This document shows, in pieces, positions 32,670 to 40,726 of a stretch of DNA of 64,000 nucleotides (positions within the stretch are counted from its first letter, which is position 1; each line of letters starts with the position of its first letter). The position numbers were made by a program, and so were the translations under genes. Under the pieces are notes generated by a model. That model was not told where the DNA came from and ran no database searches. It was given only the letters and a program-made list of their open reading frames with translations. Origin of the DNA: an uncultured Chloroflexia bacterium. GTDB taxonomy: Bacteria; Chloroflexota; Limnocylindria; Limnocylindrales; CSP1-4. The stretch covers positions 306,101 to 370,100 of the forward strand of contig CAVTKZ010000004.1 in the NCBI GenBank assembly GCA_963735455.1, given 5' to 3'.

Positions 32670-33525
32670 TCAGGACGCCACGGCGGTCCCCAGCTCGGCC
32701 AGGCCGGCCAGGTAGGCCTGCCGCCACTCCTCGGTCGTCTCGACCTGGTTGAACGTGTACAGGTGGACGCCCTGGACGTCCGCGATCGGATCCACCAGGA
32801 GGGGCACGAGGGCGGCGAGGAGGCCGTCGGGCCGGTAGCCGCCCGGGCGCAGGAAGCGGCCGATCAGGGCGCTGTTCTTGGACACGAACCGGCGCGAGTC
32901 CCGAACGCCGATCCGGGCGCTGATCTCGATCAGCCGGTGGAGCTCGGCGACGCCCGCGATGCCAAGCACGAGGGGCAGCGTGATCCCGGCGGCCCGCCGA
33001 GCCAGCAGCCAGCGCCGGAGCGCACCGGCGTCGAAGCACAGCTGGGTCGTCATCGAGGTCGCGAAGGGCTGCTTGTCGGCGAGGCCCGCCAGGAGCCGGT
33101 CCTCGGGGATCGTCGGATGGCCCTGCGGGTAGCCCGGGATGCCGATCTCGGTGAACGGGTGGCCGAGCTCGGCCATCGCCCGCAGCAGGCTCAGGCCGTC
33201 GGGGAAGTCGCCCGGCTGGGCCGAGTCCCCGCCGACCACGAAGACCTGCCGGATCCCGGCCGCCGCCAGGCTGGCGAGCAGGCCGCGGAGGTGGGCGCGA
33301 TCGCGGATCATCCGGGCCGACAGGTGCGGGACGGCGTCGAAGCCACGGTCGGCCAGCCTGGCGCTCAGCTCGACGGTGGCCTCGATGCCCTTGGCCGGCG
33401 AGGCGGTGACCGAGACCGTCGCGCCGGCCGGCAGGAAGGCCAGCTGGGGCTCGACGCTCTTGAGCGGGATCAGCTCGAAGAGCGGCGCGCCGAGGAGGCC
33501 GGCAATGCCTCCCGTGCGGGATCAT
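32670..33525 (-). CDS. metF: 5,10-methylenetetrahydrofolate reductase (MetF-like), with a frameshift near the N-terminus.
   Basis: LFELIPLKS...VSVTASPAKG...FDAVPHLSAR...VFVVGGD in the frame of ORF 32670-33311. The ATG at 33525 lies one frame over. Confidence 0.7.
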
Positions 33526-33565
33526 CGAGCCCGGGCGCGCGACGGAACATCGATCGAACGTCGGG

Positions 33566-35109
33566 CTAGACGAACGCGTCGGGCATCGACGCCTTCTTGC
33601 GGGCGATGAACTCGAGGAGGGCCTCGTCCACGCCCGGGTCGATCTCGGGCGGCTGGTACTCGGCCAGCATCTTCTTCCAGATCGCGTTGGCCCGCTGGGC
33701 GGCGTCGAGCGAGCCGTCCTCGAGCCACTTCTCGAAGCTGTTGTTGTCGGCGATCTCGGAGCGGTAGAAGGCGGTCTCGAAGTTGGCCAGGGTGTGGGCG
33801 CTGCCCAGGAAGTGGACGCCCGGCTCGTTGGCCAGGATCGCGTCGACGGCCTGGCCGTTCTCGGACAGGTCGATCCCCTGGGCGAAGACCTGCATCATCC
33901 CGCACTGGTCGGCGTCGAGGATGAACTTCTCGTAGCCGATCGCCAGCCCGCCCTCCAGCCAGCCGGCCGCGTGGAGCACGAAGTTGACCCCGGCCAGGAC
34001 CGTCGGCTGGAGGGTGGCCGCCGACTCGTAGGCGGCCTGGGCGTCGGCGATCTTCGAGGCGCACAGGCTGCCGCCCGGAGCGGAACGGGACGCCCAGCCG
34101 GCGGGCCAGGCTGGCCATCGCGTAGAGGACCAGGGCCGGCTCGGGCGTGCCGAAGGTCGGCGCCCCGGACTGCATCGACATCGAGCTGGCGAACGAGCCG
34201 AGGACGACCGGCGCCCCGGGCCGGACCAGCTGGCAGAAGGTCATGCCGCCGAGCGACTCGGCCAGCGTCTGGGCGCAGACGGCGGCGGCGGTCACCGGGG
34301 CCATCGCGCCGGCCAGGATGAACGGGGTCATCAGGGTGGCCTGGTTGGCCTCGGCGTAGGCCCGCGCCGCGCCGAGCATCGTCCCGTCCCAGACCAGCGG
34401 CGAGTTGGCGTTGATCAGGCTGAGGATCACCGGGTGGCTGTCGACGAATTCGGCGCCGAAGACGATCCGGGCCATCTCGACCGTGTCGCGGGCCCGCTCG
34501 GGTGCCGTGACCGAGCCCATGAACGGCTTGTCCGAGTAGCGGATGTGGCTGTAGACCATGTCCAGGTGGCGCTTGTTGACCGGCACGTCGACCGGCTCGC
34601 AGACCGTGCCGCCGGAGTGGTGCATGTAGGGGCTGGCGTAGGCCAGCTTCACGAAGTTGCGGAAGTCCTCGATCGTGCCGTAGCGCCGGCCGTTGTCCAG
34701 GTCGCGCACGAACGGCGAGCCGTAGTTCGGGGCGAAGACCGTGTTCATGCCGCCGATCGACGACGTTGTTCTTCGGGTTGCGGGCGTACTGGGTGAACTC
34801 GCGCGGGGCGGTCGCCTGGACGATCTGGCGGCACATCCCGCGCGGGAAGCGGACGCGCTCGCCCTGCACGTCGGCACCGGCGTCGGCGAACAGGCGGAGG
34901 GCGTCGGGATCGCCCCGGAACTCGAGGCCGACCTCCTGGAGGATCGTGTCGGCGTTGTGCTCGATCAGGGCGAGGCCCTCTTCGTCGAGGACCTCGAACG
35001 GGGCGAGCGTGCGGGTCAGGAACGGCTGCCGCTCGATGTGGCTGTGGGCGCGGAGCGCCTGGCGGCCCGCGCGGCCGCCGCTGCGCTGGCGCGGGCTGTC
35101 GTCCATCAA
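33566..35109 (-). pseudogene. MttB-superfamily (trimethylamine-methyltransferase-like, non-pyrrolysine) substrate:corrinoid methyltransferase, glycine-betaine / quaternary-amine type. Split over three frames (two frameshifts).
   Basis: The N-terminal ~120 aa lie in ORF 33895-35109. The middle ~235 aa (…GGMNTVFAPNYGSPFV…LGSFASSMSMQSGAPTFGTPE…) lie in ORF 33522-34877. The C-terminal 137 aa lie in ORF 33566-33979. No in-frame TAG/Pyl position was seen. Confidence 0.75.
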
Positions 35110-39098: not shown

Positions 39099-39782
39099 GA
39101 CGCTTGTCGATCAGCGCGCGGGCCATCTCGGCCGCCACGCCGGCATCGCGGCAGTAGGCGTCGGCGCCGACGGCCACGCCGAACTCCTCGTTCAGCGGCG
39201 CACCGCCGACGAGCACGATGTAGTCGTCGCGGATGCCCCGGGCCTTCAGCGTGTCGATGACGACCTTCATGTAGGGCATCGTCGTGGTCAGCAGGGCCGA
39301 CATCCCCAGGATGTCCGGGTGGTGCAGGTCGAGGGCGGCCAGGAACTTGTCGGCGTCGGTGTTGATGCCCAGGTCGAAGACCTCGAAGCCGGCGCCCTCG
39401 AGCATCATCCCGACGAGGTTCTTGCCGATGTCGTGGATGTCGCCCTTGACCGTGCCGATGACGACCTTGCCGATCGGCTGGGCGCCGGTCTCGGCCAGCA
39501 GCGGCCGCAGGATGGCCATGCCGGCCTTCATCGCGTTGGCGGCCAGGAGGACCTCGGGCACGAACAGGATGCCGTCGCGGAAGTCGATCCCGACGATCTT
39601 CATCCCGGCCACGAGGGCGTCGTCGAGGACCCGGGTGGCCGTCCAGCCGCGGCCGAGCAGGATGTTCGTGCCCTCGACGATCTCGGCGGCCATGCCGTCG
39701 TAGAGGTCGTTGTGCATCTGCTCGGTCAGCTCGTCGTCGGACAGGGCGGCGAGATCGATCTCGGGGTATTCGTCCGGGTCAT
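39082..39782 (-). CDS. Cobalamin-binding corrinoid protein (MtgC/MtmC-like), with a probable 1-nt indel just after the start codon.
   Basis: N-terminal helical domain LSDDELTEQMHNDLYDGMAAEIV. B12-binding Rossmann domain with the DxHxxG motif (GDIHDIGKN) and ...MSALLTTTMP... The only ATG (MTRTNTP…) is one frame over. Confidence 0.75.
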
Positions 39783-39888
39783 TGCTCGACCGACTCCTGG
39801 CGCATCTGCCGACCGTAGGTGTTCCACAATGCGGAACGATGCCGTATGATGGAACAGCGACCTGCAGCGTAGCCGATGGGGCGCTCGG

Positions 39889-40726
39889 ATGTCCATAGCC
39901 CGTCCTCCGGGCCGTCGGGAAAACCGGGTTCAGTCGATCGAGCGGGCCTTCGCCGTGCTCGCCGCCCTCGCCGACGGCCCGATCGGGGTGACCGAGGTGG
40001 CCGACCGGGTCGAGCTGCCCAAGAGCACCGTGGCGCGGCTCCTCGCGTCGCTCCAGCGCGAGGGCGCGGTCGAGCAGGAGCCGGGCGGCACCCGCTACCG
40101 GGTCGGATCGCGGATCGTCGACCCTGGCGGCGACCGTCCTGCCGACCCGGAGCATGGTCGTCCTGGCCCGCCCCGAGCTCGAGGCCCTGGCCGCGGCGGT
40201 CGGCGAGGCGGCCGGCCTGTCCGTCCCCGACGGCTTCCGGGTCCACTACGTCGACCAGGTCGACACGCCCAATCCGGTCGTCGGTCCGCGACTGGACCGG
40301 CACCCGGGTCCCGATGCACGCCGTGCCGTCCGGGCTGGTCCTGCTCGCCCACAGCGCCGCCGGCCAGCCTCGAGCGCTTCCTCGCCCGGCCGATGGAGGC
40401 GCTTCACGCCGGCCACGGTCACCGACCCGGCCGCCCTGCGCGAGCGCCTGCGCCGGGTCCAGCTCGACGGCTACGCCTGGGTCTTCGGCGAGTTCTCGGT
40501 CGGGATCAACTCCGTCGCCGCGGCCGTGGCCGACGAGGACGGCGAGGTCGTGGCGGCGGTCCACCTCCACGGCCCGTCGTATCGCTTCCCGAGCGCGGGC
40601 GGCGAGGAGCGGATCGGCGAGGAGGTCGTGGCCGCCGCCGCCCGGATCTCGGCCCGGCTCCGGCAGGGTGGTCGGGCGACCATCCGTCGCAACTCCGGCG
40701 ACGGCGAGGACCTTGGTCGGCTATAA
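39889..40726 (+). pseudogene. IclR family transcriptional regulator, with at least 3 frameshifts.
   Basis: HTH N-terminus RVQSIERAFAVLAALADGPIGVTEVADRVELPKSTVARLLASLQREG in ORF 39889-41196. The effector domain is spread over ORFs 40154-40726 and 39876-42230 (…MHAVPSGLVLLAHSAAGQ…). Confidence 0.65.

Follow-up and report, generated by a model that had tools for sequence, protein, structure and literature searches.

Is a pathway whose every gene is broken a pathway in decay, or an intact pathway that has been badly assembled? This question is raised by a stretch of 64,000 nt from an uncultured Chloroflexota bacterium (contig CAVTKZ010000004.1 of assembly GCA_963735455.1, positions 306,101 to 370,100; hereafter the window), in which seven contiguous minus-strand genes and a divergent regulator encode what is, to judge from its protein families, a functional-looking MtgBCD-kind cassette for glycine-betaine-type (quaternary amine) demethylation. 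The original prediction for this locus had left two explanations standing, recent pseudogenisation and a local assembly problem; every sequence-based test that we applied favours the latter and goes against the former. We infer, at a probability of about 0.85, that the frame breaks are consensus errors resulting from collapsed, closely related haplotypes and not gene decay, which is a strong inference rather than a proof; an assembly artefact in the wider sense, with a plain low-coverage variant included, would be at least as probable, if not slightly more so.

Frame breaks inside and outside the cassette

In this G+C-rich window (72%), coding frames were traced by frame analysis of the G+C content at third codon positions (GC3) and by stop-to-stop translations, and along the minus-strand gene array (32.67–39.78 kb) the coding frame was found to switch every few hundred bases. 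The breaks were located with a frameshift-aware dynamic-programming protein-to-DNA aligner, comparing the ortholog proteins of a closely related contig (L082) to the window, while the indels were resolved in a MAFFT DNA alignment of the window and six orthologous loci (7 sequences). This revealed about 30 frame breaks in 6.9 kb (33503–40399), with at least one in each module gene: one in the gene of the methylenetetrahydrofolate reductase (MTHFR), two in that of the MttB-superfamily methyltransferase (MttB), 10 in that of the reductive activator (RACo), four in that of the pterin-binding methyltransferase, one in the PF13769 gene (~38197), about seven in the DUF1638 gene, one in the corrinoid protein gene (a deletion in codon 3) and four in the IclR regulator gene, all four being single-base insertions (~40120, 40280, 40354, 40399). 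The earlier count of at least 14 breaks, with every gene split, was real and even understated.

Twenty-four of these events are single-base insertions unique to the window (40399, 40354, 40280, 40120, 38886, 38875, 38608, 38574, 38552, 38515, 38197, 37908, 37798, 37280, 37056, 36992, 36948, 36665, 36614, 36555, 36546, 35817, 34759 and 34076), to which one 2-nt insertion (38476) and about five deletions of 1–2 nt have to be added (about 39778, i.e., codon 3 of the corrinoid gene, 38079, 36164, 35337 and 33503). The aligner itself does not create frameshifts, since it returned 0, 0, 0 and 1 of them over all the module genes of four orthologous loci (L001, L002, L003 and L008, respectively). Once corrected, each module protein is full length and matches its Pfam model from one end to the other, aligned and corrected genes alike being free of in-frame stop codons. 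Moreover, the L082 proteins revealed no frame break in the neighbouring ALDH (aldehyde dehydrogenase), SDR, ABC2 membrane and NPCBM genes of the window.

The original prediction had set this region against a break-free one (10.3–18.9 kb), which is indeed intact, but frameshifts do occur in other parts of the window. Outside the module, an ABC_tran gene is split at ~3991 (breaks ~3630–3991), an aldo/keto reductase exactly at profile position 181 (~9580), an upstream ABC ATPase by two +1 insertions (29614 and 29786), and a pyrC-like amidohydrolase following pyrR-pyrB runs through three frames (breaks at ~54545 and 55061), while the N-terminus of an ADH was probably cut off at ~6625 and further breaks possibly lie at 19605, 19705, 58352 and 59696. 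All three of the breaks that could be typed there (29614, 29786 and 44255) are +1 insertions. Overall, about 9–14 breaks are spread over about 57 kb, i.e., one per 4–6 kb, versus one per ~230 bp inside the module, which is thus enriched about 20-fold.

Frameshifts of the same kind in unrelated genes (ABC ATPases, aldo/keto reductase, pyrC-like) suggest an artefact and speak against a very recent genuine pseudogenisation, in which the whole operon and its regulator would have been inactivated in the population and would now be accumulating real indels. For such an event one can invoke the ~20-fold break density itself, as well as its coincidence with one functional unit, none of whose eight genes escaped, whereas the ALDH and SDR genes on its flanks are spared.

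Gene decay or consensus error

If the operon were decaying, selection on its genes should have relaxed. The ratios of nonsynonymous to synonymous substitution rates (dN/dS) obtained when the corrected genes of the window are compared with their intact L082 orthologs are nevertheless low: 0.064 for MttB, 0.096 for the pterin-binding methyltransferase, 0.165 for RACo and 0.22–0.32 for IclR, DUF1638, PF13769 and MTHFR, 0.32 being the maximum among the frameshifted genes. Comparison genes fall in the same range, whether the corrinoid gene with its unbroken body (0.086), the ALDH gene (0.11) or the flanking genes (0.20–0.30). Codons that do not vary among four outgroups have undergone 19 window-specific replacements in the seven module genes with frameshifts, versus 35 replacements in intact L082. 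Thirty neutral indels are expected alongside many times more substitutions, nonsense codons included, and pseudogenisation is disfavoured because these are not seen.

The indel spectrum points in the same direction. It consists of 25 insertions (24 of 1 nt and one of 2 nt) versus about five deletions, all of 1–2 nt and none of them large, whereas bacterial pseudogenes show a deletion bias; with insertions outnumbering deletions, the observed spectrum is the opposite of the pseudogene pattern. The features of a decaying cluster (raised dN/dS, nonsense codons, an excess of changes at conserved sites, deletions at least as frequent as insertions) are therefore absent from this one, and we consider a genuine pseudogenisation improbable. 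Homopolymer miscalls could be ruled out as the cause, as only eight of the 24 insertions extend a run. No motif shared by the 25 insertion contexts, as would be left by a methylation-type systematic error, was seen by eye, no statistics having been computed.

In 20 of the 24 insertions, the extra base is the allele carried by relatives at an adjacent polymorphic column, as in the window's GTCGATC, where relatives have either GT-GATC or CG-CATC. Random placement yields 7.0 ± 2.2 such cases, the highest count among 2000 trials being 15 and thus short of 20. We know of no mutational process that writes both alleles of a single-nucleotide polymorphism (SNP) side by side. The pattern fits a consensus in which two haplotypes have been collapsed: the reads of both, being closely related, would have been merged in such a way that both SNP alleles were kept next to each other, each time adding one base. 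The same copying of neighbouring alleles argues against pseudogenisation. It would also be unexpected if the insertions were random long-read errors, or the product of plain low coverage, in an unpolished stretch devoid of strain mixing. This simpler explanation does account for the dominance of insertions, mostly outside homopolymers, for inserted bases (22 G/C and two A) roughly matching the base composition, and for the +1 insertions scattered over other parts of the window (29614, 29786 and 44255), yet we hold it to be about as improbable as pseudogenisation, given the excess of duplicated alleles and the behaviour of a second pair of contigs.

This pair consists of L081 (ENA ERZ25039546 contig_76230, a Flye-style name) and L082 (from JGI), which are 99.5% identical over 18.3 kb. 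Of the 15 gap columns between them, 14 lie in a single SNP-dense segment (0.5–2.5 kb); most of these are +1 insertions on the L081 side, which form a cluster at 818–2249 (828–2250 in L082); as a result, the APC permease is split in L081 (235 + 395 aa) and intact in L082 (606 aa). Hence, indels co-locate with SNP density in this near-identical pair too, which counts against both random errors and pseudogenisation, and the artefact is apparently a recurrent one in assemblies of this type. Indel-driven frameshifts are documented in long-read assemblies (Sereika et al. 2022, PMC9262707), and the assembly analysed here is probably a metagenomic long-read one, as far as its technology can be deduced. 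The contig of the window, 569 kb long, is an NCBI and ENA record, a source of the same kind as that of L081. As in the published cases (PMC9262707; proovframe preprint 10.1101/2021.08.23.457338), 1-nt indels split the genes, the proteins are conserved and reference-guided correction restores the frames. In contrast to those cases, the breaks of the window are mostly located outside homopolymers, strongly clustered and found at polymorphic sites. These features are the reason why we favour collapsed haplotypes over classic homopolymer miscalls.

Several observations weigh against the collapse of haplotypes. First, the relatives from which the alternative alleles were read are only 78–87% identical and thus a mere proxy for a co-occurring haplotype. 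Second, an intact allele from the same strain was not found in the protein collection that we searched, where the best matches reach 97% for MttB and 92% for DUF1638, a result that also speaks for pseudogenisation. Third, the ~20-fold local enrichment calls for something more to explain it, for instance strains mixed locally or a low coverage, and the ALDH gene next door, though equally conserved, is without any indel. The most radical alternative would take the insertions as real: a Limnocylindrales population would recently have lost its betaine-type demethylation operon through some 25 single-base insertions within 7 kb, the bases being copied from neighbouring variants through some targeted mutagenesis or templated mechanism of a kind not yet known, with no substitutions alongside them. 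We regard this as very unlikely indeed.

The distinction has practical consequences, as the genome, if annotated as it stands, would be scored as lacking, or as having pseudogenised, a complete one-carbon (C1)/osmolyte pathway, and a scan would report the locus as a case of gene decay. In this respect, the both-allele signature can serve as a cheap, read-free diagnostic to tell consensus errors due to collapsed haplotypes from true pseudogenes in long-read metagenome-assembled genomes (MAGs).

Host, gene content and neighbourhood

Using the corrected MttB (512 aa), we retrieved 594 related loci from GTDB genomes, the best of which belong to Chloroflexia/Limnocylindrales MAGs and are collinear with the 8-kb module at 77–81% DNA identity. 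Intact MttB proteins of 512 aa, 95–97% identical to the corrected one, were recovered by protein search, several of them labelled Limnocylindrales, as are relatives of the DUF1638 protein. The closest relatives of all lie on three contigs (L081, L082 and L083), in which the module is 87–89% identical to the window at the DNA level, while the flanking ABC transporter, NPCBM and SDR genes, common to the three contigs, are 74–77% identical. The host is best described, on this sequence evidence, as a Limnocylindrales-like Chloroflexota and not as the actinobacterium proposed initially, because both the closest loci and a synteny extending over more than 15 kb are those of Limnocylindrales/Chloroflexia MAGs. 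The window SDR protein is identical to one encoded on a Logan contig from ERR12040025.

A comparison with the closest relatives had been suggested as a check, and their orthologs proved intact: gene calls for the cassette in both L081 and L082 give uninterrupted proteins of 233, 203, 103, 304, 689, 512 and 296 aa, along with an IclR protein of 277 aa, and intact cassettes with identical gene order are also found in L001 to L012. Near-identical copies without breaks already number in the hundreds in public data. The cassette and the ALDH gene (32.7–42.2 kb) are closer to these relatives (87–89% DNA identity; synonymous divergence, dS, 0.30–0.52) than are the flanks at 27.5–32.2 kb (74–77%; dS 0.45–0.86). 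This could reflect either stronger constraint or an exchange of the cassette among Limnocylindrales, though a recent horizontal transfer was not retained as the explanation, the difference in dS being modest. A DUF3224 gene (32189–32671, minus strand) lies between the SDR and MTHFR genes; it occupies the same place in L083 and is absent from L081 and L082, where SDR directly follows MTHFR.

The gene order of the module, from the corrinoid protein to the MTHFR, was confirmed by Pfam, as was the proposed pathway architecture, the DxHxxG corrinoid domain and the pterin-binding domain both being present in profile searches. The MtgC-like corrinoid protein (39082–39782, minus strand, as are all genes down to the MTHFR) combines B12-binding_2 (PF02607) and B12-binding (PF02310) domains and reads GDIHDIG at its DxHxxG motif; the gene body is intact, the 1-nt deletion in codon 3 cutting it from the ATG at 39782. 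It is followed by the DUF1638 gene (38424–39041, the 3' end being approximate), which shows only profile positions 28–120 when uncorrected and 1–159 of 161 once corrected, and by a small protein of the PF13769 ("Virulence_fact") family conserved in the cassette (38108–38423), whose Pfam match is likewise truncated before correction and whose ortholog is intact (103 aa) in L081 and L082. The pterin-binding methyl-tetrahydrofolate:corrinoid methyltransferase (MtgD/MtgA-like; 37195–38111) recovers the complete Pterin_bind profile (1–244 of 244) after correction, up from positions 89–244, and passes NCBIfam PRK07535 (349 bits vs. a cut-off of 259).

Further along, the RACo/RamA-type reductive activator of corrinoid proteins (35106–37181), with its C-x5-C-x2-C motif and its linker, middle and ASKHA domains, was scattered over at least five Pfam pieces before correction; the corrected protein covers RACo_linker 4–85 of 86, Raco_middle 1–158 of 163 and RACo_C_ter 2–259 of 261. 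The non-pyrrolysine MttB-superfamily (MtgB-like) substrate:corrinoid methyltransferase (33566–35106) has its PF06253 profile (positions 1–500) distributed over three different minus-strand frames (1–108, 103–336 and 336–500), and the removal of two +1 insertions (~34759 and ~34076) gives 512 aa, exactly as in its 95–97% identical relatives. Its corrected open reading frame (ORF) is without any stop codon, hence without an in-frame UAG (pyrrolysine), and the protein stays below the equivalog of pyrrolysine-type trimethylamine methyltransferases (TIGR02369: 258.8 vs. 525 bits). The last gene of the module is the MetF2-like MTHFR (32670–33550; PF02219 at 45 bits for a cut-off of 24, Pfam piece 32673–33521), in which the start codon (ATG, 33550) and the body stand in different frames, with the single break near 33503, as established by protein-guided alignment to the L082 ortholog with start and stop codons checked.

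On the plus strand, the divergent IclR-family regulator (39889–40726; HTH_IclR and IclR_C in the corrected protein) precedes the intact betaine-aldehyde-dehydrogenase-like ALDH (40761–42230; PF00171), which falls just under the cut-off of TIGR01804 (635.5 vs. 668.6 bits). These two genes are as had been predicted, and so is the APC-family permease (42803–44594, minus strand), which carries one +1 insertion near 44255. The OpuAC protein, on the other hand, is not beside the permease: the ORF found there (44653–45663, minus strand) gives a weak Metallophos match only and no NCBIfam match, while the OpuAC-type betaine/choline-binding protein (PF04069, 113 bits) is encoded further on, in a stop-to-stop ORF at 46019–47068 on the plus strand. 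Downstream lie a lipoate ligase, a DUF4921 gene, an ECF sigma/anti-sigma pair and pyrR-pyrB. The intergenic region between ALDH and the permease contains a 62-bp tandem repeat (42248–42483; 3.9 copies, 85% matches), and a second, short repeat of 20 bp (2.2 copies) is located at 42669–42713.

An Rfam scan revealed no cobalamin or other riboswitch at the operon. Its only match in the window, unrelated to the operon, is a c-di-GMP-I-GGC riboswitch aptamer (RF03167; 14206–14297, minus strand; 69.3 bits vs. a gathering score of 59), which lies in a stretch called non-coding by the composition model and adjoins a GAF-GGDEF-EAL gene (15048–17975).

Substrate and comparison with known systems

Judging from the protein families, from which both the substrate and the direction of methyl flow are deduced, the MtgB-like enzyme would transfer a methyl group from a quaternary amine to the Co(I) of the MtgC-like corrinoid protein, and the pterin-binding methyltransferase would pass it on to tetrahydrofolate (THF), after which the MetF2-like MTHFR would oxidise methyl-THF into the C1 pool. 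RACo/RamA, probably along with the DUF1638 protein, would re-reduce the corrinoid when oxidised to Co(II). The IclR protein would act as the regulator of the operon, while the ALDH, the APC permease and the OpuAC protein would ensure substrate supply.

The solved structure that the MttB homolog most resembles is PDB 4YYC (731 bits), deposited as a "putative trimethylamine methyltransferase" and which we take to originate from S. meliloti, whereas the Desulfitobacterium enzyme DhMtgB (2QNE) is more distant (435 bits). In an alignment to 2QNE, three of the four residues by which DhMtgB contacts glycine betaine (Y97, R312, H348 and F356; PMC13080624) are accounted for, Y97, R312 and H348 being conserved as Y128, R342 and H378, while F356 aligns to G386. 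This replacement of a Phe by a Gly weighs against the substrate that we assign. We nonetheless regard glycine betaine as the most likely substrate, with some preference over the others, because of the context provided by the betaine-aldehyde-dehydrogenase-like ALDH and the OpuAC protein.

The cassette could also be intact in vivo while its MttB homolog acts on another quaternary amine (proline betaine, carnitine, gamma-butyrobetaine, a choline-derived compound or an unknown one), a rival on function only, to which we grant a smaller though substantial chance. Apart from Gly386, it is consistent with the membership of the protein in the 4YYC-like clade, for which we found no biochemical characterisation, and not in that of DhMtgB, as well as with the fact that genomes with MtgCD often hold several paralogs of pfam06253, presumably differing in substrate (PMC12478193). 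The betaine-like gene context argues against it, and so do the best NCBIfam matches of the corrinoid protein, which are the glycine-betaine-specific MtgC models (with scores below their cut-offs), and the conservation of the carboxylate-binding Arg and His and of one aromatic residue, a Trp (W382) being found four residues from the missing Phe position. Independently of the frameshifts, the 4YYC-like clade, with a Gly at DhMtgB F356, might use a quaternary amine as yet unassigned to any MttB-family enzyme.

Of the characterised systems, the MtgB/MtgC/MtgA system of D. hafniense (Ticak et al. 2014; 2QNE, 9YCE; PMC13080624) resembles the window cassette in its three components, i.e., a substrate:corrinoid methyltransferase, a corrinoid protein and a methylcorrinoid:THF methyltransferase, and in having a TIM-barrel MttB-superfamily enzyme without pyrrolysine that shares Y97, R312 and H348. 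It differs in its Phe at position 356 and in its THF methyltransferase, that of the window being of the PRK07535/MetH-module-1 type; moreover, it comes from an anaerobe, whereas the window host belongs to apparently aerobic, soil-type metagenomes.

The likeness extends further with the aerobic cassette made of MtgB (pfam06253), MtgC, MtgD (pfam00809), RamA, DUF1638 and MetF2, which Ruegeria pomeroyi induces in response to glycine betaine (Mausz et al., PNAS 2025, PMC12478193). There, MtgC and MtgD are genetically required, RamA reactivates the corrinoid from Co(II) to Co(I), with a role proposed for DUF1638, MetF2 feeds methyl-THF to C1 oxidation, and many genomes group these genes in operons (PMC12478193). 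No homocysteine-binding protein (MtgE) appeared among the window proteins scanned with Pfam and NCBIfam, although no dedicated search was made, and because no such gene turned up in the window, a dual role as methionine synthase is not inferable. Like the MtgBCD systems of Ruegeria pomeroyi DSS-3 and Sinorhizobium meliloti, the window encodes the same protein set, including a stand-alone B12-binding corrinoid protein and a second MetF. Unlike them, it comprises an additional PF13769 gene and an IclR regulator, and its host is a soil-type Limnocylindrales-like Chloroflexota instead of a marine proteobacterium. While the cassette itself has already been described, Limnocylindrales-type soil Chloroflexota would thereby join the carriers of cobalamin-dependent, MtgBCD betaine-type demethylation.

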